A DNA stretch of 64,000 nucleotides from positions 44,529 through 108,528 of the IMG/VR virus record IMGVR_UViG_3300015171_000002, one strand, 5' to 3'. The notes beneath the pieces are model-generated. The model ran no database searches, had not been told where the DNA came from, and saw only the letters and a list, made by a program, of their open reading frames with translations. Position 1 is the first letter of the stretch. The number at the start of each line of letters is the position of its first letter. Origin of the DNA: a virus. A program made the position numbers and the translations under genes. This document shows positions 6,817-51,578 of the stretch, one piece after another.

Positions 6817-7607
6817 CCTATCAGATAATCTAGAATATTCTGAAAATGTATCTAATCATACCAAAATTAGCGGTTATCGTTTTCTCGAAAATAAACGAGG
6901 TTTGTCTACCAGCTTGTCAACGATAGACTATCTTAACTAATCAAAGTGGAAGGATAAACTTTAGATTTTTTATAAGGAATAATATGTTACCAGAACGAAA
7001 ATTAAATGCTCAACAGAACGCTATACTACAACTTTCTGCAATTATAGCAGCCGTACATTTCGAGACAAATGATGCAGTTACTAAACAGTTTATTACTATG
7101 ATGGCTAGTCAAGTAGCGGCAGAATATCAACAGGATAGCCAAGACCCATTAGCTCCATCTTTATTTTTGCCGGTTAAACTAACTGAAGTTTTTAGGGATG
7201 CAATGGCTAAGATGCGAACAGGTTATGAACTTGATTTAAAATCTCAAAAACTGGTGCATACCATATCTAAAAATGGCAAAGGAAAAAATGACTAGACGTT
7301 GTAGTAAATGTGGTTTTGAGTGGGATGGTAAAGATACAGAATGTTATAATTGTGAATCAGAAGAAACTTATATCCTACCAGACAGTATTGATTTAGAAGT
7401 TTCATTCGGTAATATAAAAGATAATAAAATTTTAACTAAGAATTTATTAACTGGTGATAGTTTAAAACGTAAACTAAAAGAAAGAAAATGATATTCTCAA
7501 TTTGTTTTATTTTATTAGGTTGGTTATTTGTTGGTTCTTATAAAATAATGATGGGAATATTAGAGGGAATATTATTTGCAGGTTTATTTGTTTTGAATAG
7601 AATATTC

Positions 7608-17298: not shown

Positions 17299-18840
17299 AT
17301 GACAAAATTTAATAAATTAAATGTATCTGAAAAAGTTGGAATTGGTAATAAAGTAACTGTAAATAAAGCCGGTGGGCCAGCAATTACACTTTCTGATCGA
17401 ATGGAATTAGCTACTCTTTTATTGACTTCTTTTGTAGATGATAAATATTACGAAACTGCATCAGAACAATTAAAACGATTAAGTTCTATTTTTGATCGAT
17501 TAAATAGTAATGGTGATGCTAAATTCGCAGCTAAAGCGGCTATTTATGCTAGACATACAATGGGAATGCGTTCTATTTCTCAAGCTCTTTCGGCTAATAT
17601 TGCTGCTAAAGTAAGTGGGCAGGACTGGACTCGTTCATTTTTTGAGAAATTTCCACGGCGAGTAGATGATATGACTGAATTAGTTAGTTTCTTTCAGTCT
17701 AATTTCTCAACTGGTAAGAATAAATCAGGATATCCAAGAGCATTACCAAATGCTATGAAATATGGATTACGAAATGCTTTTGGTAAATTCAATGAATATC
17801 AGCTTGCTAAGTATCGGGCCGAGGGTAAAGAAGTTAGTCTATTAGATTTAGTAAATATTCTACATCCAGTTCCAAATGATAATAATAAAATAGCTTTAAA
17901 TAAGTTAGTTAATGGAACTTTGACAAGTACTGAAACTTGGGAAAGTCAGATTTCAAATGCTGGACAAGTAGGAGAAAATAAGGAAGAAGTAGACGAATTA
18001 AAGGGACAAGCTTTCGATAACTTAATTAGAACTAAGAAAATTGGTTATTTTGCCCTATTAAAGAATTTACGAAATATTCTACAATTATCACCAGAAAGTA
18101 TTGATGCAGCAGTAGAAATGCTAACCGATAAGAAAATGATTGAAAAAAGTTTAGTATTTCCTTTTAGATTTTTAGATGCTTATGAAGCTATTCAAGCAGA
18201 AGCGGTTGGAGGACATAGTAATAAAAATGTTCAAAAGCTTTATGCTGGTATCAACAAGGCATTAGAATTATCATTTAGTAATGTGCCTGAATTCAACGGT
18301 ACTAATTTAATTGCTGTAGATAGTTCTGGTAGTATGAGTGGTAGACCTTTCCGAATTGCGGCACTTTTCGGAGTTATTCTACTAAAACAAAACCCGGATA
18401 GTGATTTCATGCTATTTGATGATGATGCCAGATATGTAAAGAATGTCAATCTAGGTGATACTACTCTAAGTCTTGTGGAAAGTTTATATAAGTCTCAAGG
18501 TGGTGGAACTAATCTAGCTGATGTTTTCGTAAAAGCAAATAAGAAATATGATCGAGTATTTATTTTTTCTGATTGTCAGTCATGGATGGTAGCCGATAAC
18601 TATTCTAATTATTATAAAGGTGCAGTAGGAACAGTAAAAAATACATTCGCGGCATATTCAAAGAAATATGGTAAGCCGAGAGTATATAGTATAGATTTAG
18701 CAGGTCATGGAAGTGCGGAATTTAGTTCTAATGATGTAAGTACTGTAGCTGGATTTTCTGACAAAACTATAACATTACTATCTAGGATGGAGCAGGATAG
18801 AAATGCTCTAGTAAATACTATCGAAGCTGTAGAACTATAA
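17299..18840 (+). CDS. rsr: Ro60/Rsr TROVE-vWA RNA-binding protein
   Basis: NKAGGPA...LLTSF...YYET; ARHTMGMRS; YQLAKYR; L.DLVNILHP; TWES; ALLKNLRNI; FPFRFL.AY; vWA DSSGSM, GGT and SDCQ. Confidence 0.93.
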   Translation: MTKFNKLNVSEKVGIGNKVTVNKAGGPAITLSDRMELATLLLTSFVDDKYYETASEQLKRLSSIFDRLNSNGDAKFAAKAAIYARHTMGMRSISQALSANIAAKVSGQDWTRSFFEKFPRRVDDMTELVSFFQSNFSTGKNKSGYPRALPNAMKYGLRNAFGKFNEYQLAKYRAEGKEVSLLDLVNILHPVPNDNNKIALNKLVNGTLTSTETWESQISNAGQVGENKEEVDELKGQAFDNLIRTKKIGYFALLKNLRNILQLSPESIDAAVEMLTDKKMIEKSLVFPFRFLDAYEAIQAEAVGGHSNKNVQKLYAGINKALELSFSNVPEFNGTNLIAVDSSGSMSGRPFRIAALFGVILLKQNPDSDFMLFDDDARYVKNVNLGDTTLSLVESLYKSQGGGTNLADVFVKANKKYDRVFIFSDCQSWMVADNYSNYYKGAVGTVKNTFAAYSKKYGKPRVYSIDLAGHGSAEFSSNDVSTVAGFSDKTITLLSRMEQDRNALVNTIEAVEL

Positions 18841-19722
18841 TAAAAATAGACCATAGAAATATGGTCTATTCCTATTAAAGAATAAAAAAAAATGTATAAT
18901 CCATACGATTTATTACCGAGTGAATTTGATAATGCTGTTTTTCCAGAATTATATAAAGATTATAATTATGGTGAATATGATTATAAAACATATAAAAAAG
19001 AAGTTAAAAAATTAGTAGATAAGAGAGAAAAAATGACAAATAAATTTAATGTAACCAATAGAACAGGCAACCAAATAGTAGTAAAATTAGATGATGGTAC
19101 AACAGTATCAGGAACAGTTGTACAAGTAACAAAAACATTAAAGGCATTGGGTTATGATGCTAATTTAGAAAAAACATATAAATCTAGTACAAATGGAACG
19201 GTTTTAATTAGTAGTATGCCGACTCCACATATTCGAAATGCTGTAGCAAAACAAATTCAGGTCTGGTTAGATGGACTAAAGAAACTAGATAATGCTGATT
19301 TTTATGAAGAAGTTTATAATAAATTAGATATGCCGTTTTGGGATAATGAATTTATAAATTTAGTAGAAGAATTACAAGATCGTGACGATTAGTTTTGGAA
19401 AATAATAAATTTGGGGTGCAAATTCAAGTAAATAGCGATGATTTATTTGATGAACGTAGAAAAGAATATATTCTCCGAAATTTGAGAGAACAAGCTGTAG
19501 AAAAATTAGCCGAGCAGATTACAGATGGAAATTTCTATATCATTAGATTAAAACAATCTATTTTACAAAATTATATGGATGTAATGCTTAGATATGAATG
19601 GGAAGTTAGTGCTGTTCAATCTAAAAAAATTACTATGTGGGAAACCCCTAAATATGGAGATATGCCTTTTCTAGTTTTATCAAGTAGCGCCATAGAAGAA
19701 ATAAAAAATAGGATAAAACAAC

Positions 19723-20169
19723 ATGGATATAGATTACGTCAAAAATTATCTAAGAAATTCTCTTGGATTAAAAATAGGAGTAATCGGCAGTAGGGATTTT
19801 AATGATACCGTTTTATTAAATAAATGGATAACTTCTTGTTTACATTATTATAATGTCTGGATGATAATTAGTGGGGGTAAGCGTTCTGATGGTCTTGGAG
19901 CAGATACTTTAGCAGAAATTTGGGCAGATGAACATAATTTCACTAAACTTATTTTTCCACCACGTTATGATTTATATCCTGGGAACGTAGCACCATTAAA
20001 ACGTAATACTCAAATAGCAAACGAATCTGATTTTTTATTAGCATTTTGGGATGGTAAGAGTAGGGGAACTAAGGATACAATAGATAAAGCCTGGAATATT
20101 AATAAAATAACATTTATTGTAGATTATAAAGATAAGGCATGGATTTATAATCCAGAAGATTATTTATGA
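19723..20169 (+). CDS. YspA/DUF2493-like SLOG protein
   Basis: IGSRDF, ISGG, GADTLA, APLKRN, AFWDGKSRGT motifs. Confidence 0.8.
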   Translation: MDIDYVKNYLRNSLGLKIGVIGSRDFNDTVLLNKWITSCLHYYNVWMIISGGKRSDGLGADTLAEIWADEHNFTKLIFPPRYDLYPGNVAPLKRNTQIANESDFLLAFWDGKSRGTKDTIDKAWNINKITFIVDYKDKAWIYNPEDYL

Positions 20170-20843
20170 CAGAAACTAATGAAGCAGTTATTCAAAAAAA
20201 GAAATATTATATTGGCGGCACAACGGTAGAAACAGATAAACCTTTCAGAGAGCGAAGTAAAGCAGATTTTTATCCCACTGAGCAAGCCCTTATAGACGCC
20301 TATATTCAAAAAGAAAGATGGCAGATTTTAGATTATGCCGCTAAATCTGAAGTTGTAGTAGCTGATTTAGGTGCTGGTGATGGTCGTTGGGGACTCTCTC
20401 TAAAAAAGAAATATCCAGATGTATATATTTTAGGTTTAGATATTAGAGATTTACCCGATCCTGGATTTGATTATTGGTATCCGAATAGAAACTTTTTAGA
20501 AACCATAAATCCTAAAACATGGGACGTTATTCTAGGAAACCCGCCTTATAATATCGCTATGGAATGGCTTAATAAATGTTTAGAAAAAATAAATAAACGA
20601 TATGGTGAAATTCATTTATTACTACCGTTATCTTTTTTATCAGGTGAAAAACGTTATAATGAATTTTATTCTAACAAAATAGTTCCAGATGTAACGATTT
20701 GTAGTACCAGACCATCATTTAGTGAAGATGGTAAAACTTATCCTAGTCGAGAATATGGCATGTTTAAATGGGAGTTTCGCGGAGGATTTTGTATTACCAG
20801 TGGTCAACTATCCTGGCTAAGTTATGAAAGAAATAAAAAATGA
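20166..20843 (+). CDS. DNA N6-adenine methyltransferase-like protein
   Basis: DFYPT, DLGAGDG motif I, GNPPY motif IV. Confidence 0.82.
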   Translation: MTETNEAVIQKKKYYIGGTTVETDKPFRERSKADFYPTEQALIDAYIQKERWQILDYAAKSEVVVADLGAGDGRWGLSLKKKYPDVYILGLDIRDLPDPGFDYWYPNRNFLETINPKTWDVILGNPPYNIAMEWLNKCLEKINKRYGEIHLLLPLSFLSGEKRYNEFYSNKIVPDVTICSTRPSFSEDGKTYPSREYGMFKWEFRGGFCITSGQLSWLSYERNKK

Positions 20844-21036
20844 AAGTTCATATTATTACTGATTTATATGGTGATTGGATCGCTTTATATAAAGACGGTA
20901 GTAAAGTAGCTGAAGGACATTCTTTAGATGAAAAACAAGTCCTAGACGCTTTAGGAATTGAATATACTGAATCTGAAATAAGTAATGATGAATATGATAC
21001 TGGAATTCATGAAGATTTCTTTCCGAAAGTTTTACC

Positions 21037-21210
21037 ATGAAAGAGTTTGAATATACCTGTGCTAACTGCCATACTCTTTCAACGTGGAAACATACTGTAA
21101 ATGTAAAAACAAAACGTTGTCCAAATTGTAAAAGAAAGAAACTTTCTAGGGTTTGGATAATTGCCGGAATACATTTTCATGGAGCCGGTTACACTAGAAA
21201 GTTAGGTTAG
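21037..21210 (+). CDS. Small FmdB-like zinc-ribbon protein (not in the ORF track)
   Basis: Translates as MKEFEYTCANCH...CPNC...IHFHGAGY. Confidence 0.6.
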   Translation: MKEFEYTCANCHTLSTWKHTVNVKTKRCPNCKRKKLSRVWIIAGIHFHGAGYTRKLG

Positions 21211-21211
21211 A

Positions 21212-21874
21212 ATTTTTAAGAATGAAAAAGAATTATTCGATATCTTTATTCCACGTGTAGAACAATTAGGATTTGATGTTTTTCCTGAGTACGAAAATTG
21301 GGATTTGGTTATTCGAAGAAATAAAATAATTATTGGAGTTGAAGGCAAACTCAAGAAAAATCTACATCTCCTGGCCCAATTGGTTCAGAAAGATGATGTT
21401 TTCTTCAAAATTGCTTTGTTACCATTCGAAAAGTTTACCAAACTCGAAGAGGACTGGATATTAATTTCTAAACGTCTAAAGATATTACCTGTTATGGTAA
21501 GACCCATAGATAAATATAATCCCACTGGTAATATTTATTTTCATTGGAATGTAAAGAATTTATTATATTATAGATGGCATCCAAGACATTTATTAAAGGT
21601 TCCAGATTTTAAATATACTACCCCTGCTGGTGTACCAAGTCCAAGAAAAGTATCAGAAAAAAATATAGCTTTTGTTAGATTGGAACAGATAGCATTAAAT
21701 AATGGTGGATTTATTACTATAAAAGATTGTCGTAGCTTAGGACTAGAACGTATTCCAAGATTTTTTTATATTTATAATCCTAAACTGAATAGATGGGAAC
21801 TAGATAAAGATAGATTAGCCAGTAAATTATATCCCCATATATATAAAGGAATTTTAGAAAATGCTAAAAAATGA
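21212..21874 (+). CDS. PD-(D/E)XK-like nuclease-fold protein, probable non-AUG start
   Basis: Open frame extends upstream of the TTG at 21305 to ATT at 21212; E...WD.V...VEGK pattern. Confidence 0.45.
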   Translation: MFKNEKELFDIFIPRVEQLGFDVFPEYENWDLVIRRNKIIIGVEGKLKKNLHLLAQLVQKDDVFFKIALLPFEKFTKLEEDWILISKRLKILPVMVRPIDKYNPTGNIYFHWNVKNLLYYRWHPRHLLKVPDFKYTTPAGVPSPRKVSEKNIAFVRLEQIALNNGGFITIKDCRSLGLERIPRFFYIYNPKLNRWELDKDRLASKLYPHIYKGILENAKK

Positions 21875-22077
21875 TTGTTTAATAACAAGTTTAACCAGTA
21901 AACATTACGATATTCAGATAGCATTATCCAAAGTAAATATTCTATTTAATGATATTATGAATAAATATAAATATGTGAATGTGGTTGGTCACAATATTCT
22001 TCTAAATAATAATGGTGAATATGAAGTTGCTTTAACCTTTGTTTATGATTCTATGGAAAAATATGAGGATATAGCAG

Positions 22078-22659
22078 ATTAGTAACGGCAAGATTCACGA
22101 TGAGTTATCTAAAGATTTAGAGATACCAGTCACTATTATTAGTACACTGGTAGCTTATTCTATTTCTCATCAAATTATTTATTCTGGAATTGTTGGAATA
22201 TTAGTTCTTATAGGAATAACATGTCAACGTTTTATGACACCAGATTTAGATGTAATCGAAAAAAAAGAATATCGTTATGGTTATTATCCCTTTTATGTGA
22301 TTTATAAATCTTTCGGACACTGGCCTTATATTATTTCTAGATATTATTGGTGGCCCTATGCTAGAGTTACTAAACATAGGTCTATATTTTCTCATGGTCT
22401 AATTATAGGTACACTGGTTAGAATGTTTTATTTTTTTCTGCCATTTATCGCAGTTGGGTTATATTTTGCGATAAATACAGGCACTAATGCCCAAAATTGG
22501 GCTGTTGTAGCCTTTTTACTGCCTTACTTGGTATATTTTACGTTAGGCTGGCTAATTGCTGATTTTGGACACCTTTTATTAGACTACATTTTTCCTTTTA
22601 GAAGATGGTATGAAAATCTACTTGGCCCATCATATCAGTACCATCATAATAAATTATAA
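22078..22659 (+). CDS. DUF2227-like membrane metal-binding protein, probable AUU start
   Basis: In-frame SNGKIHD...TPDLD...YWWPY...HRS..SHG..IGT; GAGGA SD before ATT at 22078. Confidence 0.7.
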   Translation: MSNGKIHDELSKDLEIPVTIISTLVAYSISHQIIYSGIVGILVLIGITCQRFMTPDLDVIEKKEYRYGYYPFYVIYKSFGHWPYIISRYYWWPYARVTKHRSIFSHGLIIGTLVRMFYFFLPFIAVGLYFAINTGTNAQNWAVVAFLLPYLVYFTLGWLIADFGHLLLDYIFPFRRWYENLLGPSYQYHHNKL

Positions 22660-22669
22660 GAAAATACAA

Positions 22670-23122
22670 ATGTCAAACTTTGATAAAAATAGATTTGCAA
22701 GCAATAAACAAGAATATGTTACACCAGATAAACTATTTAAAGTATTAGATAATGAATTTCATTTTACCTTTGATTTATGTGCGGATAACAATAATGCGAA
22801 AGTAAATCGTTTCTATACAATAGATGATAATGCGTTAGAACGGCCCTGGAATGGTATTTGTTGGATGAATCCACCATATAAAGATATGAAAAAATGGATT
22901 ATTAAAGCATATGAACAAACAAGAAAAGAAAATATAGTAGTATGTCTTATTCCAGCTAGAACGAATACTAATTGGTGGCACGAATATTGTATGAAAGGTG
23001 AAATTCGTTTTATAAAAGGTAGACCTAAATTTGAAGGTTGTATTCATGGTTTACCACAACCATTAGCTATAGTTATTTTTGGAATAAATTATCATAATAA
23101 TTATAAATCTGTAAATTTTTAA
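22670..23122 (+). CDS. Phage Dam-family DNA N6-adenine methyltransferase
   Basis: EYVTP, FDLCA, WMNPPY, LIPART.T.WW and IRFIKGR motifs. Confidence 0.9.
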   Translation: MSNFDKNRFASNKQEYVTPDKLFKVLDNEFHFTFDLCADNNNAKVNRFYTIDDNALERPWNGICWMNPPYKDMKKWIIKAYEQTRKENIVVCLIPARTNTNWWHEYCMKGEIRFIKGRPKFEGCIHGLPQPLAIVIFGINYHNNYKSVNF

Positions 23123-23171
23123 CCATGACTAGAGTACTACTTGACAAATTTTAGTTTTCATGGCATAATAA

Positions 23172-23300
23172 TAAAAGTGGACGATAAATAACCGATTAGC
23201 TATCACAATTGCTAGTAGGATGCAGAGACAATAGTTGAGAAATCAACCGTCTAAACTCCTGAAACTGCTTATCGTGGGCTGACGAGCCTTACCACTTTTA
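23172..23300 (+). ncRNA. Promoter-driven multi-branched small RNA of unknown family
   Basis: Follows TTGACA-17-CATAAT; ends pair (TAAAAGTGG/CCACTTTTA); internal helices; T-rich tail. Confidence 0.55.
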
Positions 23301-24447
23301 TTTTTTTATTATTAGGATAAATTATATGAAAATTACAATGACGCAAGAAGATATTAATGAAACTTTAGCCTGTTTTAGAAATGGTGAACGGCGTGGGCCT
23401 TGTCCTATTGAAAGAGCCTTTAAGCGTAATGGAATTGATGCTGTAGTCGGTACAAGTATTATGCATATTAATGGTGATTTTAAAGATAAATATGGTTTTA
23501 AAGTTCATTTTAAACAAATGATGACACCCAAAGAATTTGATAATTTTCCTTACGAATTTGACCGTAATCCAAAATTTAGACGGAACTGTAAACCATTTAG
23601 TTTTCAATTTGAAATGCCAGAATAATGTATATATATTGTCGGTATTGTGGCGCTAAAAATAATAATGATACCCTGTATTGTCGGGGTTGTTCAGCACCTT
23701 TTCATGACGAATATAATCAGCCACAAAAAGAATATATACCAGAACTATATAATGATTATGGTATAACAGGTTCATATTCTTTTTATGGTATGGGAGCTTA
23801 TCTACCATCGGGAAGTGCTATTTATACTCCGGATATGTTACATGAAACTATTCGTTTAGGAATTATTGAGCCAGATGAAGCCAGAGAAATGTTAGAAATT
23901 CCACAATATCAAAGTCCAGAACGTACCAGAATAGAAGATTTACCAGATATAAAGTTATTGGATAAAATAAAGAATAGAATAATGGATTGGCGCAAATAAA
24001 GGAGAAATAAAATGAAAAACGCAGATATCAAGAAAATGCTAAAAAATGATGTGCTTTGGGCTGCAAAGAATGGTCATAAGATTCAAATGAATACTTTTGG
24101 AACTACAATAGATTGTGAAACCGGTTTGGTTGATAAATATGTACAAGTTTCTGCTAAATGTGGAGTTTGTGCTATCGGTTCTAATTTAATTAGAAATCAG
24201 ACAAAAGCATTATCGGGAATGGAATCTAATGATTTTAGTAGAGTAATTAGACGTTCAGAATGTTTTACATCCGGTCTGGTTAGTGGTACTGATCCAGAAT
24301 ATTCTAAATCTGAAGCTTTAGATGAAGCCGGGTGGTTTGATAATAGTTCACAAAAGAAAGCATTTATGGATGGTTTTAATACTGGCCGAGAAGTTTTAGA
24401 TTGGGTCAGGGAACAAAAGAAATCTGGTAAGATAAAATAAGAAATAT

Positions 24448-32875: not shown

Positions 32876-35800
32876 AATGAATTTAGGAGAGATAAAATTA
32901 GATTGGGATAGAAAAGGTTATTCGGCAGAACAAGTAATTGAATTACAAAAGTTATTTACTTTGCGTGGTGGTAGTGATAAAGCAAAAATAAAAGCTCAAC
33001 GCAATATTGTTCGAAATATGGGATTTTTGAGCCTACCTTTCTCTTTAAACAAGAAAAAGTTTTAGTAGTACCAATGTCCTATTGCGCGTTTTGGGATTTT
33101 GGAATAGAATTATTAAATGTTCATCGTATTCACTAGAGAAAAAGGATAAAATAATGTCAGAACTAATTACGTTTGTTGTAAAGAATGGAAATGGTCAGGT
33201 TTATAAGTTTAGTAAATTAGAACGTGGATTTACTTATGGTTCTCCATTGACTGATGGAGTAGCTAAACGTGGTCGACCGAGTAAATTTCCTACTGAAACC
33301 GTTATTATGTCACATCCTGTTACTGAAACAAGTTCTAATAAGGTTGTAAAGCCAGTTAAAAAGACTAATTTTCTAAAGGTTGTCAATACCGAAACATCCG
33401 AAAATGTAAATAAGCCGGAATTAGTTCCCGCTGGTGGTGGTAATCATGTTGAAGAAGAACGTGTAAAGGGTGACAATTTTTTAAAGCTCGACTAGTCGAT
33501 AAAAACAATAATTTATTACCCTGGAAAAAAATAAAAACAACTAAAATAAAATTGAATAAAGTTTTATGGTGCGGGAGTCATTTTTTGGTACAAATTTAAT
33601 TGTTTACAAAAAAACTTGATTTTTTCTAACCAGATTCTAACTTGACAAGTGTTGGTTTTTCCAGTAAGATAAACGCAGGATTGAAGATTAAAACAGCCGA
33701 CAAATAAATGTTGTCGTTTGAAATAGTTTTCAATCCAGCGTTTTTCTTATTTTAGGAGAGATAAAATGTCTTTTCAAACTGAAAATAATAAAACTGCTCG
33801 GTTTATCCGAGAAAACAGGAAAATATTTGTTGATATGTATAATAATAAACATTATTTACCGGGGCCATATACATATCATCCTGTAAAAAATGTAGTATCG
33901 GTTAAACCAGTAGATCAATATTCTAAAAAGCGTAAAACTGGTGTTTTATTTTTAGTGGATAATGAGCCGATTTGTGTTATGACATTTACTCATGCGATGG
34001 ATTTAGTAAAAAAGGATATTGAAAATGTCTAAACCAGTTGAATTTCAAACTACGGCACTCCTGGATAATAAATTTGATTTATATACCGTTCGTGGTTATC
34101 CTGTAGAAATTCCGGGTTATCCTTATATTACTGCCTATAAAGGATATTATAATATTAATACTCCTATTCATCGGGGTACAAAGAAGTGGTATATTGTGGA
34201 TGCGAATGCTCATTTTATTATTGGGCAGGGTCAGCGTAAAATTGAAGATGCTATGCAATCCACTATTGAATATTTGAAAGTTCATAATTGTACCGAATTG
34301 AACTATTGGGAAGCTATTCAATCTAGTTTGATGGTTGTCTTAAAAGGATTTGCAAAATGAATGATTTAGATGAATTTCTCAAACTAAATAATGAATTAAA
34401 AAAGCTTTTAAAAACATATACCGATGTTTATCAGTATCAAGAAAAAATGATGATCGCGGAATGGTTTGGATTGCGGCCAGATATTTATTTTTATTTTGAA
34501 TATAGTGAATGGGCTGATATCCGCGATGCCTTTCATCAGTTAGTTCTTTATGAAATTGATAATAATTTTTCTGCAATTCGTAGTTTCCATCATATTTCTA
34601 TTCGTGATGGTGTCAGTCTAAATTATAATGATATGCGAGATTTATATTATATTTGGGCTAAAGAAACTGGTCATAAAGTTTGGACTCCACAACAAATTGA
34701 GAATAAGGATAAGTGGCTAAATGGCTAATTCAGACTCTAATCTAATTGCTGTTCATAATCTCTGTTCAGATCAAATCTGGCATTATGATAGTCGGTATTG
34801 TACTCCCAAAGAGGCTTTAATTAATTGTTACGAGCAGTATATGAATAATAATTGGAATACTTGGCAATATGATTATACCCGGTATGATACTAAGATTTGT
34901 GAGGGTTCTCGAACATTAGCCATTGATAACTTTTGTGTTTTGAAAGAAGTTCCACATGCGTGAGCTAATTATTGCTAAACTGAATAAAATGATGGACAAA
35001 TATACCAGTATTGAATGGCAATATTGGTTTGGCACACAAAAACCAGATACTTTTAAATATATGACAGATCAACAAATTCTAAATTTTTATACAGATTTTA
35101 TTCGTAAAACTTCAATGCCAAGAGCCGGATAATAAAATGTCTGAAATATCTGAAAGTATGCAGGAACAATTTAATAGAATTATGCGAATAGCTATTGATA
35201 TTGGTTATAATGATAATGGTGGCTGTTCTGATTATTCTTATTATTTGTGTGCATTTTATCCGGAAAAAGATAATCATCTATGGAATATTATTGATGGATT
35301 GCCCACTTATATTTGGCGTTGGTTGAATAATAAAGGTTCTATAAGTTGGATTCTAGAAAATACTCCCGAAGTGGTGGAAAAACGAATTGGTGACGAATTA
35401 GATTTTATTATTCTTTTAGAAAAAGAATTTTTTGAATGGAAAAAACTTCAGGGTTAGAATCTTCTAACTTGACAGCGACACAAATTCTGTTATAATACTT
35501 GTATATCGGGCAGAAAAACTAATTTATAGGAGAAACTGTAATGAATGTTTTGGTCGGACATAATTCAGAAGAGAATGGTTATGTGGTGCATAATTATCCC
35601 TATGGTGGCCGCAGAACTGATATTCGCTATTGGATTGAATATAAACTGATTACTAAGATTCATTCATGGCGGTTTTGTAGTCAAACTCTTAATCCTAAAA
35701 CTAATCGTTGGAACGCGCCTAAATGCTCAACTTATGTGGATAAGCCTTTGCTGATGGGAATTAATCCAGAAAATAATCATGTTGAGCGAATTGATACGCC

Positions 35801-37644
35801 ATATAATGATAAAATTTCTGATTTGAAAGTATTTTATCAGACGTATAGTAATTATTTCAATCTGGAACAATTAGAAGCTTTTCGTGCTTATTTTATCGGT
35901 AAGGTAGCGCGGATTAATAAGGCTGATATGTGGGATAAGTGCTATAAAGGCGAAATTCCATTTGCTGAACATAGTAGGGCTGTTACTCTGGAATATATTA
36001 GTTTGAATAATCTTGTAAAAGCTGATGGCCTAGATGAATTTGTAGAGACGGTCTGATATGAATATTTTTGGTTTATTTCAAAAGAAACATAAGCATAAGC
36101 ATATTATTATTCCAATCGAGCAATATAAACCAGTTAAGACATTTACAACTCAAGTAAATTGTCCAAATTGTCGTAATTTTATTAGTTTAAATTTTCCAGT
36201 TGGAACAAATGTTAGACTAGCTCATAAAACTTGTTCTATTTGTGAATATAATTGGGAATAATGAAATGGATAATGTCAGCGTCAAGCATGATAAACTAAG
36301 TTTTGATTTTTTCGGTGTTAATGGTTATTCGAATGATGGAGATAGTTATTCTGTTCGAATTGCTAAAATGAATATACCGCCTGAAAACTGGATAAATCAT
36401 CCACCTTATCATATTCCTAATCCTGATTACAATTATTTTGGTCGTTTGTTTGAGAAGTCACCAGAAATGCTTAAAATGCTTAAAGAATATCTTTATCTAA
36501 TCATGACAATGGATTTACCGCTTACCGAAAAGGAAATTCGTGATTTGATTAAATATATTGAAAAGGGGACAGAATGAATTTACCAGTTGCAGCTATTCTT
36601 GATTTTCTTTTAGTTTTGTTTATTTTCTTTAGGTGGCTATTAGTATTGTATCAATTACTAACTAAATCTATTACACTTGTTGTAGGCAGTTTCGATTTTA
36701 TTGCTTATCTTTTTGTTCTTTTTTGGGCAGTTTCATTACTAATTGGTATTGTCCTAGCAGGAGTAGTAAAATGATGGATGCAATTGAAAAACCGACTAAT
36801 CAGGAATTTATTGATTGGTTTCGTAATATTTGGAGTGAACGTATTATTAATGGTAATCTAAATTCTGATCCATTGGATATTCTTTCTGAGACTGTTACTG
36901 ATATTCTTTGGGGATTTGAAGAATTTGGTGATGTCAAGGATTGGCTAGAATATGGTAGTCTGACTCATCATTCTCGGCGTGGTTATCCGGTAACTAAAAC
37001 GTTAGTCAAAACCGCGATTTATTTGTGGTATAATTGGAGCGAATAAAATGTTAATTATTGAATATGTTCCAGACGAAAATAAAGTAGCTGTAGCTGATGG
37101 AAATGTAGACCGATATGTAGATGATATCCTACGTTTAGGTCTTTTGTCTGGTTATAAGAATTTTATTCATAATGGTGGAGATATCGAACTACAATATTCT
37201 ACTTCTAATATTTTTACTGCCTTTCGAGTAGCAATAAAGGAAGGTCGAATTAGTAGGGTTATTATTCGTTTCAAGTTCAATGGTAAACTAATTGAATATG
37301 ATAAAGATGGTAGGTCGGAAAACTGGCCGGATGGTTTCTTAGATTATGAGCATAAACTATTAGAACGTTTGTTGACAAGAAATAAATAAAATGTTAGAAT
37401 ATCTCGGAATTGATAATTTTAAATCAGTTGGGGATGATGTTTTTGATTTGTTTTTTATTACCGCTGAGAATGAAGCAGAAGCTTTTAATAAAATGCGGAT
37501 TGCTACAGGTTTGGTAGATACTAAATTTGATAAGTATTGTGAACAAAATTTTAGTTTTCAGCTTATTCCAGTCCGCACTAATAAAGAATTAGAATTGGAT
37601 TGTGTTGCATTGGGAGAAATCAGAAGTTCTAGATAATATAATAA

Positions 37645-43200: not shown

Positions 43201-44521
43201 GGATTTATTGTACTAAAATAACCGTCATCGTGCGGCGTTGGTCTGGTCAAGGAAATAATTTTATTATATTCAATACTGGTTTCACGTGAAACATTCTAAA
43301 TGTATTTTAACACTTGTCACAAACCGATACCATTAAAAATAAATAAAAATTTCTCAATATGGGGGAATATAATAAATTAAACAATCCTGGATAGATTATT
43401 TCAGTAGATTATTTTTAAATCAAATCGTATTGGGCAGTTATGGGGGATATAAGGATTAGAGATGTCAAAGCATAGCAAGAATAATAAAACAGAAGATTTC
43501 CAGACAGGTTATACCAAAGCTGAATGGTATGGACAATCACGCAAACAACGTACTAAAAAGCGTGGCAGTAAAAAGAATTTATATAAGAAAAATCAGCCGG
43601 ATTCGAACGCTATAAACGAGCGGGATAGTTTACACCAAAGCGACAAAATAAACACGTGGCGGCCACTTTCTGAGCGTTTAGACGGCAGCATAGACGACAA
43701 TCGGGAAAATAAACCCCATTAATGCCGCTCAATTCGTTAACATAGGACATAACATACTACTAATCATTGTTATTATCTATATTTTTCTAGTATTATGGAA
43801 TACTGCGGCAGCGGTAAAAAATTAGGAAATAAAATAATTCGCGGCTAGCATCTGGGGTTGTCAAAATTAAATCTAATCGGAAAAGGTAAATTGAAACAAA
43901 ACGATTTGTAATTCTAAAACTAAAAAACTTGAGTCTGAGTCCTATATTAGTTAATATAGGATTTTTTTATTTTCTATTTTAATAATTCTAGTCGCGGCTG
44001 TGTTGACATAATCCAGGTATTGACATAATACTATTGCTTTCGTGTATTTATTCACAACCCGCGCTTTCGTGCTTATTATCACAACACAATTTTTCTGGTT
44101 AGAATTTTGACGAAATGCCGGAAAACGAGCCGGTTTTTTTCGTTTGAAAAACTTTATGTCAACCATGATTCCAGCGTAACATGACGGGCAGCAGGAGTCA
44201 AGGTTGTGATTATTTTCACGATGGCGCATAACTTTACAATTAGAAATTTTATTATTTGCCTTAGTGTAAATAAGCACAAACCTTATTTACAGTTATGTCA
44301 ACTACCATTATCTGCTTTCGTGAAAATAAGAACAAATAGAACATTTGTTCTACTCAGATAGGTTGTGAATAATGGCACGAAAGAAAATATAAAACTAAAA
44401 AATTCTAACCAAACTCTAACCAGATTCAAACAAGAAAGTATTGACAAGTTTTTTTGTTTGGTTTATAGTATTTGAAGTTGAGCGGGCAAATCGGCCCATT
44501 AGAATGCAAAGGATAAATAAA

Positions 44522-45544
44522 ATGTCTCTCAAAGCTAAGGGAAATGCGGTTAAAGTAACAGGTTTAGGATTTGGTAAGCAGAAAGATATGGCGTCTCAGA
44601 ATTTTATCGGAGGCGAGCGTTGGATGCAACATATTGAAAGAGGTACACTTAAGATTAATCCCGAATTGGCTACGATGTCATTAGATGATATCCTAACCAG
44701 TGGTGGCCTAAATTTTGGTGTACTTAAATCTCAAACATTTTATAAATCCGCTGTTTCTGGATTAGAAATTCCTAGCCGGGGTTATTCTGTTTATCGGACT
44801 GATACTGATGTAGAATTGGGACATGGATTTAGTGATGGTTATCAGCCTATTTCCTATCCCGATATTCTTTCTCAGTTCTTTCAAAATGCTTTGGATTTGG
44901 GTAATATCCCGACTCGTGCAATTAGTTTTGATAATGGGGCCAAAGGTGCCATTCAGTTTGCAATGCCGCAGGAATATCTAATTGCGGATCGACCACATAA
45001 GACATTTTTGAATTTTTATTCCAGCCATGATGGTACTTATGGCGTTACCATGAATGAATGTGATATTTGTATTCTTTGTGGTAATACCTTTGCTTATTCT
45101 TTCCGCGATACAAGTGCAAAGTGGACGGTAAAGCATACCGTAAATATGCAATCTAAGATTAATGATATTCGGGAAAAGATTCTTATTAGTACGGAATCTC
45201 AACAAGGATATTATTTCAATCTGGATAAGATGGCAGCCAAGAAGGTTAGTTTTCAGGATAAGAATAATTTCCTGATGGCTATGTTTCCAGATGGCGATAT
45301 CAAAGAAAGTGGTAAAGTAAATCAAGGCCCGGCTAATCAGCGTATTCAATTAGATGATGCAATTAGTACCACGGTTAATGAGCGGAATAGCGCCGATACT
45401 ACATTTTATGATCTATTGCAGGGTGCATTTCGCCAGCAAAGTTATAAGACTCAAAATCGTGGCGGTGATGCTCAATTCGGTTATGTGATGAAGTCAATAG
45501 TAAATCAAAACGCTTATGATTACGTCACGGAGGCTATGAAATAA
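44522..45544 (+). CDS. DUF932 (TIGR03299-like) phage protein
   Basis: YRTDT..ELG....YQP, SHDG, CGN and HT motifs; SD before ATG at 44522. Confidence 0.75.
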   Translation: MSLKAKGNAVKVTGLGFGKQKDMASQNFIGGERWMQHIERGTLKINPELATMSLDDILTSGGLNFGVLKSQTFYKSAVSGLEIPSRGYSVYRTDTDVELGHGFSDGYQPISYPDILSQFFQNALDLGNIPTRAISFDNGAKGAIQFAMPQEYLIADRPHKTFLNFYSSHDGTYGVTMNECDICILCGNTFAYSFRDTSAKWTVKHTVNMQSKINDIREKILISTESQQGYYFNLDKMAAKKVSFQDKNNFLMAMFPDGDIKESGKVNQGPANQRIQLDDAISTTVNERNSADTTFYDLLQGAFRQQSYKTQNRGGDAQFGYVMKSIVNQNAYDYVTEAMK

Positions 45545-45603: not shown

Positions 45604-46839
45604 TTTAATTATTTTTATTATGTGGTTTAGTGAAATTAGTCACAATGGCTCAACGCTGATTTTATTATTTGCTTTTGTACCAGTATTCACAATACCACTT
45701 GACATAACGAGGTTAGAATTTTCATACAGCTTTCTAACTTGACACTGTATAAAATCCGACTATAATAAAAACATGGGCGGCAGAAAATAAGACTAGTTTT
45801 GGAGAATAAAAGATGACATTTGACGAAGCTAAAACATTGAAAATTGGGGATATTTTCCACGTTCTAGGCGAGAATAAGCGCGATGGTAAACCGCAGAATT
45901 GGCGCGTAACTGGTAAAACGAAATTGTGGAAAACTAATCCAAATAGAATTAAAATTCCATGTGCGCATGGAATGTATGAGCATGGCTATATCGAAACTGA
46001 TAATCTTCATTTAGTTTATTTGCCAAAAGGAAAATAACATGCCAGAAGAAATTGGAATGCCAATGGTAAAGAATCATTTCAATCATGTTCTTACACCAGA
46101 ACAAGAAGAATTGATTTGTTTTCTTGTGAATTGTGAAATGGAATTGTGGGAGAGTCATGCTGATATTCCCACTAATTATCTCAAGCGGCTGGAAGCTATC
46201 AAAGCTGAAATGCAAAATCATTCCAATATGCTTTATCGTAGCCTTTAAAGGATAATAAAATGAAAAGTGAAATAATCCATTACGGTATGTGGCAAATTCC
46301 AGTAAAGGCAATAAATGTTTACTGCCCCGATGGTATTTATCGGACTTGTAGAATTACTGGCGAAGCTGATACCTTTTTTACTTTACCGGCACAATGTCAG
46401 GTTAGGGGTAAAACGGTAACTGGATTTATTTCTAATCGATATGATGCTCCTGAGGGTGAAATGTATTTTTGGGGATTTGGTCGAAATATGGCTGCTTTCT
46501 TTCCAGATTTTGATAAAGCCTATGATTTTATTAGTAATGAAATTGCCACAGATAGCAGAATCGATGATTATGAGTTACGCGATATTTTCAAGGGTAAGTG
46601 GATTATTACTTTCAAACGTAATCAAAAAGATTGGACTGGACAGGATTATGAAATTCATGGGCATAAATATCCTGATAATACCAGTCATGGACGCTAAAGG
46701 ATAATAAAATGTTGGATATAAATGTTTTCCTTATCATTGTATTAACTTTTAGTTTAGGATTTATTTTAGGGCGACTGACTGGAAATTCTAACCAAAATCT
46801 AACTTGACAATTGGGCGTAGTAGCGGTACAATGTTTTCA

Positions 46840-47081
46840 AGGTTAGGGATTAATTGAACGCGACGGTTTCTGAAATGAAAAACAGAGTAAGCGACCAATG
46901 GACGATTTTAATTCCTAGCCTAAAATTCCAGTCGCCACAATAGGTTCAAATATCGGATGAAGAGTAGGGCGAGATTATCCGAACTGGAATAATAAAATAA
47001 AGTGGGCGGTGCTTTATAAATAAATAAGCGTCCACAAATAAAATAACCCCCAAATTATATCATAGGGGGTTATTTTATTTA
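46840..47081 (+). ncRNA. Noncoding transcription unit with its own promoter and intrinsic terminator
   Basis: TTGACA(46804)-17-TACAAT; 14-bp closing helix; pseudoknot module; terminator AAATAAAATAACCCCC/GGGGGTTATTTTATTT; no ORF. Confidence 0.6.
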
Positions 47082-47145
47082 TAACTCGATAGTTTGTCGA
47101 TAGATTATTTTTAAACAGAATAATAGGGGATGGTATAGGGGGGGA

Positions 47146-47233
47146 TTCTAACCACCTAAACACGATTAGCTAGTTAGTATCAATTCTAACCACCTAAACA
47201 CGATTTGACAGTAACAAAATTTTGTGGTATAAT
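47146..47233 (+). promoter_or_regulatory. Consensus promoter preceded by a duplicated 22-bp element
   Basis: TTCTAACCACCTAAACACGATT twice, then TTGACA-17-TATAAT with TGTGG. Confidence 0.75.
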
Positions 47234-47642
47234 TGCCGCTGTCCTACCGCTCTGGTACGGGAAATAAATTATTAGATTATTAGTTTTAGAAAAGAAAAAA
47301 TAATCTAATAAAATTTCGCTGAAAGCGAACGCGATAGCGTGGTTTTAGGGGTTACTTTTGCTACTTTTATTTGTCTTATGGGGGAAAAGAAAAAAAGAAA
47401 TTTGAGGCACGTCATGGCCCGTATAGGATGATAAAATCGACAAGCCGCGAAGCTGGCTTAAAGATTGGAGATTTAATAAAATGAAAAATTATAAAAGTAG
47501 AGATAAAAAATTGAATAAGAAAAAGAATGGGATGAGAATAAGTGGAAAGAGTTTATTTTTGCTTAATTATTTGACTCAGAAAAAAGCGGAAAAAATAAAG
47601 CAGGAAAATAAAAAAACTTGAGTCCTGATTTGAGTCCTAAAA

Positions 47643-47676
47643 ACAATATACATATATAATTATATATGTATATTGT
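47643..47676. repeat. Perfect 34-bp AT-rich palindrome
   Basis: ACAATATACATATATAA|TTATATATGTATATTGT. Confidence 0.9.
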
Positions 47677-48236
47677 CTTATTTTGCGCCTAGCACTATTG
47701 TTCTATAGAACAAGTGTTCTATTGACATAACATTATTGCTTTCGTGCATATATTCACAATCGGTAATTCGCCGGGTGAATATTATGTAAACTTGGGGGAG
47801 ATATGCTCGCCGCATGGCAATATGATAAATCTCTATCCTATGCGGAGTCAATAGTACTTAAGTACCGTTCATTTGTTCTATATGTGATAACTTTCACGAA
47901 AACAAATATCTGAAATTTCAATGATTTAAATTATCTACTTTCGTGAAATTAGCCACAAAGCAGTATTATGTCAACCCTGCCCATAGAGGAGATTTTCTAA
48001 TGTATTTATTTTCGTGCTTTTATTCACAAACAAAAAAATTCTTGAATTGTGAATAAAAGAACTAAAGTATCTAATCCCATAATGCAGCCCCGAATAAGTG
48101 ACAAATAGCACTAAAGTATAGAAAATAGGCGTGAAAATTCTAACCAAACTCTAACCAGATTGGGTATTGACTCCTATCTCGAATTGACTATAATAAGCAC
48201 ATACCGGCGAAAGACTAGCGCAAAGGAAAAGTTGAA

Positions 48237-48491
48237 ATGCCCGAAATGACCACAGCACAGTTGAAGCAGCGTATCGCAGAGATGGAAGCCGCTGAAGCCG
48301 CCCGCAAAGAGGCGAACAATAAAATCAGTTTTAAAATTGGTGACAAAGGAGGTCTTTCGGTGTATCATGGAAGCCGTTTTCCGACTACACTGTATTACTC
48401 GCAATGGCTGAAGGTGTTGACTCACGCCGATGAGATTCTTACCTATCTTGAGGCGCATAAAGCACAATTGGCACACAAGGAAAATGAATAA
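48237..48491 (+). CDS. Small conserved phage protein (early gene)
   Basis: ISFKIGDKGGLSVY..RFPTTLY..QW; own sigma70 promoter and SD. Confidence 0.7.
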   Translation: MPEMTTAQLKQRIAEMEAAEAARKEANNKISFKIGDKGGLSVYHGSRFPTTLYYSQWLKVLTHADEILTYLEAHKAQLAHKENE

Positions 48492-48579
48492 AATTCAAAC
48501 CAGACTCTAACTTGACTCCGCATAGTAAAGCAGTATAATCAAAACATGGCCGCGCAGGACTAGAGAAAAGGAAAATAAA

Positions 48580-48996
48580 ATGCCCAAGAATACGAAGTTG
48601 GCGAAGGATACCGAAATTTTTGATGCTGCCGCGAAAGCTCAGGGTATGGCCCATGTTGCGGAATTGAACGCTGCCGTTGACGCCGCGCCCGAAGCCGTGA
48701 AGCGTGGTCGGAAGCCCTCCAACAAACTGACGTTCGCGAAGTTTGTTGCCGCTGTAAAATCCGGCGAAATGTTGCCCGGTATGATTGTGACCGAAGAGAA
48801 GCGTGAGGGCAATCGGATTATCTCATTTGCCGGTGTCAAGGCCGAGAATCCGGTTATCGGCCTGGACGAAGAGGGCAATCTGACTCTGTCCGAATTGACC
48901 ACGGACAATAGCACGTGGAAGCGAACGCCAATTGAGAAGGTTGTCAAGACCGTCAGCGCGGCTGAGGTTATGGCGCTTTTGAATAGCGCGGAATAG
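48580..48996 (+). CDS. Early protein with a KRGRKP AT-hook-like motif
   Basis: Own promoter, SD and terminator; higher GC than the rest of the window. Confidence 0.65.
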   Translation: MPKNTKLAKDTEIFDAAAKAQGMAHVAELNAAVDAAPEAVKRGRKPSNKLTFAKFVAAVKSGEMLPGMIVTEEKREGNRIISFAGVKAENPVIGLDEEGNLTLSELTTDNSTWKRTPIEKVVKTVSAAEVMALLNSAE

Positions 48997-49039
48997 AATA
49001 CCTCTCCCGCCCATAATGGCGTAAAAGCCTACATAATCC

Positions 49040-49084
49040 GAAAATTCCAGACATAGAAAATATGTTCTGGAATTTTCGTTTTTG
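49040..49084 (+). terminator. Intrinsic terminator
   Basis: GAAAATTCCAGA/TCTGGAATTTTC followed by a T-run. Confidence 0.75.
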
Positions 49085-50269
49085 CCGTCAGTTTTTATTA
49101 TACGCTTTAGTGCATTTATTCACAATCAAACCCGTCTGCCATATTATATGCTTTCGTGTTATTTATCACAATCGCTAATTATCCGCTTTCGTAAATTTAA
49201 TCACTAATGATATTATGTCAACCCTGCCCATAGAGGAGATTTTATTATTTCTTTTCTTTCGTCCAAATAATCACAATCAGAAAATTCTAGACGTTTTCTA
49301 ACCAGACTCTAACTTGACAATGCCGGTACTAATGGACTATACTTGATTATATTCTAGTCTAGTATAAGGAAAATAAAATGACCGGAAATGAAGTTTGGAA
49401 TAAGCTAGCCGAACAAGGCGCAACAAGCATAAATGTTTCTGATAATGGCGATGTCTATGCTACCAAACCAGCAAGTATTCTAACTGGTTATACAGCTTTC
49501 AAATGGGCCATAAAAACGGGCGAAAACCAGTATCGATTTTTCTGTGATTTATGGGTACTGACAGATAATAAAAACATAGCCTAAAACGGCTCTAGGACGG
49601 TCTAGGATAGATGGGAAATGATAAAACGTATATTATCACCCCATTTTTATTCTAGACCGTCCTAGACGGTTTTTAATTATTTTGTTGATTATTGTCATCG
49701 AAATTGTGGCTATTTTCACGATAATAAATATTAATAAAAACGTCGAATATAATTCTGCGCTTTCGTGAAAGTAAGAATAATCATAACCTGTGAATAACTA
49801 CACGAAACTATAGAATACTGGAATAAAACTCTAACCAGATTATAACCAAACTGGGCTTGACTCAATTTCCAGAATAGGATATTATCTTGTCTATAGGCAA
49901 ATGAAATTCTAGCGAAAAGGAAAACGAAATGGCTATCAATTTGAACGTTACTCCGGCTGAAATTGAAGGCGAAGATTATGCGAATGGCAATTCGAATCGC
50001 GCCGTTCGTGTTTTGAATATCGTCAAAGTGATTGATGCCTTGGGTATCGATATGGGCTATGTTAGGTTTGATCTGGGCAATGGACACAATACGTATAGCG
50101 TTGAGTCTACCATCATGTTAGACTGGGCCAAATTGAATAACTGCGATTATTATGCCGCCAGTCGCGAAGATTTTAACATTTGGGAAGCCGTTAGCAATGC
50201 GCGGCAGGGTTTTTATGATGCCGTGATTGTCGAGGATCTGTCATAGAAGAAAATTACGCAAGCAGCAAC

Positions 50270-50311
50270 AAATACCAGAACAAAAAAATTTGTTCTGGTA
50301 TTTTTTTATTT
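50270..50311 (+). terminator. Intrinsic terminator
   Basis: AAATACCAGAAC/GTTCTGGTATTT followed by a T-run. Confidence 0.8.
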
Positions 50312-50760
50312 GTCTGCATTGCATTGTGATTAAACGTACTAAACCAGATATAAAATTATTAAAATAATTGAATTATACGCTTTAGTGTAATTAGTCACAA
50401 TAAAACAAATGTTCTATATAGAATAAATGTTCTAATTCTAAGCGATCCACGCGAAAAACTCAAAATAAAAAACGTCTGCTAACACGGTTTAGCAAGCCCT
50501 ACAATCGTTCTTCTTTTTTACCAATACATTGATACCCATTTTTCTGTAGCGTTGACTGGCGGTGCCTTTTTACGCGATGTTATTGTAAAGTAAATTAATC
50601 AGTTTAGAACAAACATTCTACCAATTTATTTTATTCCACGCTTTTGTGCATATATTCACAAATGATTGTGCATAAAAGTACAAAAGTAAATAAATAATCA
50701 GTTAAAACTATAACCAGAATCTAACTTGACAATGAAATGAAAATAGAATAATATATAACT

Positions 50761-51027
50761 ATGAACGCAAAAAAGAGCGCCTCAAACAAAACTTATCGGA
50801 ATGGCTTACGTGAATTATGCCTAGAAATTTTAGGCCACAAATGCAATAATTGTGGCGAAACCCGTTCAGAATTTTTAGATTTTCATCATACCAACCCTTG
50901 CAATAAAGTTGCTAGTATCGCTAAACTGATTAGAACTAATCCGGCATTATTGGTGACAGAGATTCAGAAGTGTGTGCTACTCTGCAAGAATTGTCATAAA
51001 GCAGAACACTATGGGAAGAAAATCTAA
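50761..51027 (+). CDS. Small HNH endonuclease
   Basis: CNNCG...LDFHH...KC.LLCKNCH...H. Confidence 0.85.
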   Translation: MNAKKSASNKTYRNGLRELCLEILGHKCNNCGETRSEFLDFHHTNPCNKVASIAKLIRTNPALLVTEIQKCVLLCKNCHKAEHYGKKI

Positions 51028-51578
51028 CCAGACTCTAACTTGACAATACCGCAAAAATAAAGTATCATGTTTATATAGGGTTGGATGACAGAAGAAGAGA
51101 AAATAAAATATGCTCGCCCAACCTATAAAATAAATATGCACTGGTATAGGGGATTGTTAGATATTCCGGTGTCCAGAACTATCGGATGTGAGGGCGTAGG
51201 TTATAATTAGGATAATGCCTAATTAGCCGACAATTCCGAGCCGGAAAAACAAATGTTCTAGCCCACCACATTATTGTGGGATGACGACTAGAACATTTGT
51301 TTTATTTTTTATTTGTGAATAAAATAACTAAAACAAATAAATAGAATAATTATTATGCGCTTTCGTGAATATATTCACAAACAGAATACAATAGGATATT
51401 GTGAATAACTACACAAAAGCAAATATCGGTAGATTACATAATTCTCGATAGGTCAGAAATGGTTAGGATGGGGATAGGATTTCAATAGGGGGTAGGTAAA
51501 TTCTAACCAAACTATAACTTGACTATTTAGAATAAATCGACTAATATATAACTACATCGGCGATACAGGAGAAATGAA

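Follow-up and report, generated by a model that had tools for sequence, protein, structure and literature searches.

The question raised by this locus is whether the pseudoknotted RNA element at positions 46925–46990 of a stretch of uncultured viral DNA belongs to a wider family of structured RNAs and, if so, what such a family might do for the phages that carry it. The stretch, referred to below as the window, comprises 64,000 nucleotides (nt), positions 44,529 to 108,528 of IMG/VR record IMGVR_UViG_3300015171_000002, an uncultured 112-kb record with an estimated completeness of 93 % and 33 % G+C. A first-pass annotation had described the element as one copy of a two-member family of candidate structured noncoding RNAs. 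It was found that a phage RNA fold of ~52–90 nt, not catalogued before, is almost certainly present in the window in three paralogous copies, and the proposed family size was too small, with at least 48 distinct members present on other phage contigs in addition to the three in the window. The copies and their helices, and the promoters, terminators and genes for which transcription is described below, all lie on the plus strand unless stated.

Inspection of the sequence located all three annotated helices at both 46925–46990 (copy 1) and 51164–51246 (copy 2). In copy 1, the closing helix (P1) is formed by ATTCCAGT (46925–46932) with ACTGGAAT (46983–46990), and TCGGAT (46953–46958) is complementary to ATCCGA (46977–46982) within a second helix (P3) that pairs 46953–46960 with 46975–46982. 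The inner helix proposed between CGCC (46933–46936) and GGCG (46968–46971) corresponds to a real pseudoknot in a slightly incorrect register. The family-wide register has one bulged base, so the reliable pairs are G46934–C46970, C46935–G46969 and C46936–G46968, with a GNRA-type turn, GAGA, directly following at 46971–46974. In copy 2, P1 pairs TTCCGGT (51164–51170) with GCCGGAA (51240–51246), GTCC (51171–51174) faces GGGC (51192–51195) to give the pseudoknot pairs G51171–C51195, C51173–G51194 and C51174–G51193, and P3 pairs TCGGA (51182–51186) with TCCGA (51235–51239). This copy has a 39-nt insertion, containing an extra hairpin TAATTAGG/CCTAATTA (51204–51225), at a site that holds 7 nt in other members.

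Copy 3, which the first-pass annotation had not connected with the other two, lies at 17036–17096. Its P1 (17036–17043 with 17089–17096) differs in sequence (AUAGUGGU/GCCACUAU) and its P3 (17060–17066 with 17082–17088) shows compensatory changes, UCGGUAU/AUACCGA, while GUCCA, AAUAUCGG, GGGCG and CCGA-G are retained. The pseudoknot pairs are G17044–C17076, C17046–G17075 and C17047–G17074, and the GNRA turn is GCAA (17077–17080). Of the compensatory differences that had been claimed between copies 1 and 2, one true P1 pair change (A-U to G-C) was confirmed and there were no others in P1; the strong covariation signal comes from relatives elsewhere, not from differences between these two copies. 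A third exact occurrence of TATCGGATG, at 9809, falls inside the polynucleotide kinase gene and was rejected as unrelated to the motif.

Relatives were gathered by degenerate pattern scans of viral and metagenome contigs. The 48 distinct members found outside the window were all on uncultured phage contigs, and included L029, L048, L164 and L166 as matches to the degenerate patterns; a strict pattern derived from copies 1 and 2 had no matches in viral contigs. In the metagenome scan, a flanking P1 of at least 6 base pairs (bp) was present in 22 of 73 pattern matches, compared to ~0.5 by chance, and the P1 sequence was different in each of the 22. In the viral scan, for which the pseudoknot bases were left unconstrained, 30 of the 33 matches were accepted as members. 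Model R3, which was built before that scan, recovers all of the new members (24 distinct, E 5e-9 to 4e-3 in 340 kb) and rejects all three matches judged false. When applied to the 112-kb record, R3 identifies exactly three copies, with 48.7 bits (E 7e-9) for copy 1, 45.1 bits (E 5e-8) for copy 2 and 59.5 bits (E 2e-11) for copy 3.

An independent, sequence-only nhmmer profile, trained solely on the 48 members from outside the window, had as its top three window matches 17037–17095 (copy 3, E 5.8e-10), 46927–46984 (copy 1, E 3e-4) and 51164–51198 (copy 2, E 7e-4), with the next match at E 0.21. The likeness of the window's copies far exceeds chance. Among the earlier, narrower models, R1, built from copy 1 alone, had its best other match in the window at 17032–17100 and missed copy 2 because of the 39-nt insertion, and the two-sequence model R2 placed copy 2 only fifth (E 0.22). 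An R2 match at 35790–35850 on the plus strand (E 0.006) was discarded as a false positive, being an A/U-rich hairpin without the UAUCGG, GGGCG or CCGA core. No convincing member was found in bacterial genome contigs with a pattern that covered only a rare variant with 6-nt spacing, not canonical members.

The consensus was derived from alignment A8, which has 51 rows (the 48 members and the three window copies). P1 is 6–14 bp in length and ends on its inner side with a G-C pair (48/51) followed by U.G (49/51). It is followed by G, one bulged base that is usually U, then C, one of C, U or A, and any base, after which a variable, A-rich linker of 4–45 nt, usually ending in AAC, leads from the pseudoknot strand to P3. 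The 5′ strand of P3 consists of UAUCGG with one or two variable pairing bases and opens into a short loop, in which the 3′ strand of the pseudoknot (N, then G, A or U, then G and C) is directly followed by G-N-R-A. At the 3′ end come four bases, CCGA, a single G and the return strand of P1. The predicted fold is an H-type pseudoknot with one bulge, enclosed by a closing helix. The base of P3, UAUCGG/CCGA, is invariant and in the fold model P3 stacks directly on P1. Around 20 bases, including the entire helix UCGG/CCGA, are fixed in sequence and not merely in pairing.

Covariation supported P1, P3 and the pseudoknot. Across A8, 93.5 % of pair cells are standard, and the covariation score was 0.49; shuffles scored 0.11, and sliding the partners by 1–3 columns gave 0.11 at most. 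In P3, the fifth pair forms in 23 of 25 sequences, compared to 10.8 in shuffles, with all four Watson–Crick types represented. The pseudoknot was assessed on 24 distinct sequences picked without constraint on the pseudoknot bases. The one-bulge register, consisting of a G-C pair, the bulged base and three further pairs, was paired at 86 of 96 positions against 70.0 in shuffles (p<5e-5). Within it, pair e-x2 is formed in 24/24 sequences (C-G in 15, U-A in 5, A-U in 2, G-C in 1 and U.G in 1) and pair f-x1 in 17/24, against 9.4 expected (p about 0.001). The alternative register without a bulge was rejected, performing no better than shuffles both as a whole (65/96 against 68.4) and at column pair 12/48 of alignment A7 (9/22 against 9.0).

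Several variants were observed among the relatives. In a subtype represented by L246:8038–8093 (minus strand) and L252:1723–1775 (minus strand), GUCA..UUGC replaces GUCC..GGGC and one base fewer separates the GNRA turn from CCGA. L368 carries two copies on its minus strand, at 2215–2269 and 2567–2625, 350 nt apart in a single noncoding stretch, with identical P1 sequences and different pseudoknot sequences. Six members (L178, L193, L205, L169, L131 and L348) have UGCUGGU/GCCAGCA as P1 and a second hairpin, GCCAGCU/AGCUGGC, directly 3′ of the motif; this hairpin repeats the P1 words, so that the two elements could alternatively pair with one another. The GGGCGAAAG element of another genome may be a further member.

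Known RNA classes did not account for the motif. At the gathering threshold, a search of the whole window with Rfam 15 (4227 models) returned only tRNAs, and in E-value mode nothing overlapped any motif copy in 46700–51500, 15000–24000 or 28 member loci. No copy received a tRNA call from ARAGORN or RF00005, and no anticodon arm is present. The sequence beyond P1 is not U-rich as a rule, and copies 1 and 2 have separate downstream terminators, which argues against an intrinsic terminator. At 26 loci the motif follows a stop codon, which may be TAA, TAG or TGA; the in-frame extension beyond it is mostly below 30 codons, and no one frame stays open across the set. The motif is therefore not a recoding signal. 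The first-pass annotation, which could match the element to no known riboswitch or ribozyme and proposed a new structured RNA family with a pseudoknot, is upheld by the homologs, the covariation and the absence of an overlapping Rfam family. Keyword searches of the literature, which cannot find a motif by its sequence, gave no description of it. The word new is applied here to the RNA family only, and an earlier printed description is possible.

Copies 1 and 2 are each located ~85–90 nt 3′ of a near-consensus promoter. That of copy 1 (46804–46832) consists of TTGACA, a 17-nt spacer and TACAAT, matching 11 of 12 consensus positions, and that of copy 2 (51040–51068) of TTGACA, a 17-nt spacer and TATCAT. 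Both lie within the 14-mer TCTAACTTGACAAT, which occurs 12 times in the window with up to two mismatches, compared to 1.04 expected, and probably marks the phage's own class of strong promoters. This word combines the −35 box with a fixed upstream word, and its plus-strand sites include 27994, 33636, 35463, 45733 and 46798, as well as 49308, 50720, 51034 and 52244, among others. Both copies lie in a region of small genes bearing this recurring promoter word. The early expression proposed by the first-pass annotation would follow solely from the consensus type of these promoters.

The two promoters each begin a unit of ~235 nt that ends in a predicted terminator. In minimum-energy and centroid folds, the copy 1 transcript opens with a hairpin at 46840–46921 that has a 14-bp terminal helix, and closes at 47002–47080 with a hairpin GTGGGCG/CGTCCAC followed by an intrinsic terminator with a T-rich tail. 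The fold of 46840–47080 has an energy of −74 kcal/mol (z −6.0 against shuffles). The copy 2 unit (z −4.4 against shuffles) ends in a long hairpin terminator with a T-run at 51246–51312. The two units resemble each other only in promoter and motif, and neither had a BLASTN match among 50,697 phage records. A 41-codon open reading frame (ORF) at 51085–51210 overlaps copy 2, and the counterpart frame in copy 1 is closed on both sides, by TAG at 46916–46918 and TGA at 46958–46960; the similarity of the copies is not explained by any conserved ORF.

Two short ORFs precede the promoters. A 32-codon ORF encoding a hydrophobic peptide (46709–46807, plus strand) overlaps the −35 region of the copy 1 promoter with its final codons, and a short HNH endonuclease ORF of 88 amino acids (50761–51027, plus strand) stops 13 nt short of the −35 box in the promoter of copy 2. 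At L210 the ORF immediately upstream of the motif also encodes an HNH endonuclease (Pfam HNH_3); these two cases may be a coincidence. The protein encoded at 44441–45544, near the motif units, had no relatives among viral contigs.

Outside the window the motif occupies varied genomic positions. The four carrier records compared (33, 55, 39 and 39 % G+C) have no protein in common (BLASTP, E<=1e-4), and neither the upstream nor the downstream flanking ORFs show mutual similarity or a common Pfam family. At 42 of 49 loci the closest ORF upstream has the same orientation as the motif. A co-oriented ORF with 70 or more codons ends close to the motif at 26 loci, the motif starting −3 to +28 nt from its stop (median about 8). 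The ribosome-binding site and ATG of the next gene often lie within 10–25 nt past the motif. Some members are 15–45 nt upstream of a start codon, some are followed by independent terminators without a gene, and several are apparently between convergent genes, judging by ORF calls alone. An ORF of at least 100 amino acids covers only 5 of 51 members.

A smaller number of members are associated with tRNAs. Three of about 50 members are in tRNA arrays, each filling a tRNA-sized slot; a rough count (3 of about 48 loci) gave no significant enrichment near tRNA genes. In the 19-tRNA array of L364 (2106–2334), the motif is separated by 1 nt from the preceding tRNA-Arg(UCU) and by 5 nt from the following tRNA-Arg(CCU), and in L189 it is likewise between tRNA-Asn and tRNA-Ala. 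On three unrelated contigs, the motif is inserted in the apparent D-loop of a class-II tRNA-like scaffold, at L356:3870–4040 (plus strand), L373 ~160–213 (minus strand) and L237 ~7380–7560 (minus strand). The layout of these scaffolds is ..UGGCGGAAUU, motif, AUUGGUAGACG.., followed by a T arm with the loop UUCAAAU or UUCGAGU and the 3′ strand of the acceptor, and RNAfold closes their acceptor stem. None of the three received an ARAGORN tRNA call, whether the motif was present or cut out, or an Rfam tRNA call.

Genes in the window include 19 for tRNAs, one for a polynucleotide kinase, two for RNA ligases and one for Ro60/TROVE. At 16129–16200 there is also a tRNA-like RF00005 match (33 bits) without an ARAGORN call. 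Copy 3 is located between a promoter and a YrlA-like RNA at 17125–17241 (RF02553, 29.7 bits, under the Rfam cut-off of 69), 25 nt upstream of that RNA, and the Ro60/TROVE gene (17299–18840) follows downstream. Copy 3, the YrlA-like RNA and the Ro60 gene apparently share one transcript. The match beside copy 3 is the sole signal of the RF02553 model, which gave none on copies 1, 2 or 3.

The motif is a conserved RNA domain that folds independently and does not depend on any phage-specific protein shared among its carriers. The phages that keep it have no proteins in common and are up to 22 G+C points apart; such an RNA must either meet something universal or act on itself. The reading that we tentatively place ahead of the others, at somewhat less than even confidence, is that the domain binds in trans, as a handle or decoy, to some conserved factor of bacteria. 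This is favoured by the combination of sequence-fixed stretches, stable-RNA contexts and two dedicated units; a stable RNA is what the differing contexts of dedicated units, tRNA-array slots and D-loop insertions would have in common. The fold would be a self-contained, portable domain, and its putative partner a host protein, a ribonucleoprotein or a small ligand. Any stable transcript would serve phages as a vehicle for it; this phage would produce it from two dedicated strong promoter-to-terminator units (copies 1 and 2) and from the leader of the Y-RNA/Ro60 transcript (copy 3).

Three points weigh against the binding domain. Pairing in P1 helped to decide which sequences were taken as members, which makes its statistics circular in part; the P3 and pseudoknot tests are free of this. 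The post-stop operon positions of around half of the members would suit a function in cis, in processing, stability or translation, just as well. Ribozyme cores and riboswitch pockets, too, typically have invariant bases at their junctions.

The main rival, possible though doubtful, is that the motif is an RNA-processing element, acting as a self-cleaving ribozyme of a new class or marking the site for a host RNase (P, Z, E or III). In either case polycistronic transcripts, tRNA arrays and the Y-RNA operon would be divided into individual stable RNAs. The small size, compact pseudoknot and ~20 invariant bases at helix junctions are consistent with such a role, as are the intercistronic positions right after stops with the upstream gene co-oriented at most loci, the 1-nt and 5-nt distances to neighbouring tRNAs, the 25-nt distance to the YrlA-like RNA, the presence of more than one copy per genome and the absence of a common protein. 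Phage T7 provides a precedent in the RNase III sites between its genes. A further precedent is found in the HDV (hepatitis delta virus)-like theta ribozymes beside phage tRNAs (PMC10879173). Processing does not, however, suit copies 1 and 2, which are dedicated units with no obvious processing target, or the three members in tRNA-like D-loops, where a cut would split the scaffold. The variation of P1 from 6 to 14 bp is likewise ill-suited to a measured, tRNA-like RNase P substrate, and no Rfam ribozyme family matches. To our knowledge, most conserved phage motifs that have been tried for self-cleavage do not cleave.

The cis-element and riboswitch readings fit fewer of the contexts than either the binding domain or processing. 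A cis-acting mRNA element, acting as a shield against 3′ exonucleases, a block to Rho loading or a means of tuning translation of the next gene, is unlikely. It would explain the 26 loci at which the motif closely follows a co-oriented stop, the frequent proximity of the next ribosome-binding site and start codon, and the members apparently placed between convergent genes. No ORF closely precedes copies 1 and 2, however, in tRNA arrays and tRNA-like scaffolds there is no cistron for the motif to shield, and a mere roadblock does not require a helix to be invariant in sequence.

That the motif is a metabolite-sensing riboswitch aptamer controlling the downstream gene is improbable to a greater degree. 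Several small aptamers are likewise small H-type pseudoknots that have an A-rich strand and invariant bases at the junctions, and the members 15–45 nt upstream of a start codon are suitably placed. Against this, no downstream gene family recurs, no expression platform is present, P1 overlaps neither a terminator nor a ribosome-binding site, some members are in tRNA arrays or precede independent terminators without a gene, and the Rfam riboswitch families give no match.

The shared leader of copy 3, the YrlA-like RNA and the Ro60 gene would be consistent with an extra Ro60 partner, a Y-RNA-type handle particular to Ro60-encoding phages, and this is very improbable. The distribution of the motif largely refutes it: three other carrier records, one of them 100 % complete, have no match to TROVE (PF05731), twelve Ro60-encoding loci of other viruses have no motif in searches with the narrow early models R1 and R2 only, and the Rfam YrlA model does not match the motif. 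Chance resemblance, a coding remnant or a read-through or frameshift pseudoknot, for which the ORF over copy 2 and the many post-stop positions might speak, is scarcely credible and already refuted, chance being excluded by the covariation and profile E-values, and the coding and recoding versions contradicted by the closed frame in copy 1, the few members under long ORFs and post-stop extensions that are short, lack a common frame and follow all three stop codons.

Past motifs of this type have proved to be new ribozymes, riboswitch aptamers or protein-binding RNAs, and the size of ~60 nt suits immediate biochemical testing. The family is a further indication that uncatalogued functional RNAs are concealed in the tRNA clusters and early regions of phages. 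As a more speculative possibility, about which we are doubtful, the motif could represent either a new self-cleaving ribozyme class or an RNA sponge or decoy mass-produced by unrelated phages. A sponge would be made from strong, presumed early promoters, in tRNA arrays and on tRNA-like scaffolds, with a conserved bacterial enzyme or an immune signalling molecule as its target, and if true would be an RNA-only device for host takeover or counter-defence.

Among known systems, the intergenic sites of phage T7 are long irregular hairpins cut by RNase III. Like the motif, they are conserved structures right after stops between co-oriented genes, and the likeness is one of functional analogy only, as the helices of the motif are too short for RNase III and a pseudoknot is present. 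The preQ1-I riboswitch, one of the small H-type pseudoknot aptamers, resembles the motif in its compactness, its invariant bases at the junctions and its A-rich strand, which in the motif is often AAAAAAC-UA. That strand is loop 3 in preQ1-I and loop 1 in the motif, which in addition has an outer closing helix and a GNRA turn and lacks an associated gene family, an expression platform and an Rfam match.

The HDV-like fold is a nested double pseudoknot with the strand order P1-P2-P3-P3′-P1′-P4-P2′, a P1.1 helix and a catalytic C in J4/2. The strand order of the motif is instead P1-PK-P3-PK′-P3′-P1′, where PK denotes the pseudoknot strands, and it has no HDV-type Rfam match. Some of the HDV-like theta ribozymes of gut phages are directly beside tRNA genes (PMC10879173). 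They resemble the motif in being small pseudoknotted RNAs with no protein partner that are found in many unrelated phages, and differ from it in position, being within 5 nt of tRNA ends while the motif is only rarely in tRNA arrays.

Species 1 and 2 of phage T4 (rnaC and rnaD) are small stable RNAs of 120–140 nt from the T4 tRNA cluster. They do not have this pseudoknot core, and the motif is shorter and mostly between protein genes; kinship in sequence or fold is not expected. The likeness is that of phage-encoded small RNAs other than tRNAs, co-transcribed with tRNAs and released as discrete stable molecules to which no function has been assigned. The YrlA and YrlB RNAs (RF02553), which have a Ro-binding stem and a permuted tRNA-like domain and act with Ro60/Rsr, differ in that their model does not match the motif and three other carriers have no Ro60. 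They share with it the principle of a modular RNA in which a protein-binding handle is joined to tRNA-like parts, a parallel seen both in the co-transcription of copy 3 with the YrlA-like RNA and Ro60 and in the three relatives carried on tRNA-like scaffolds.
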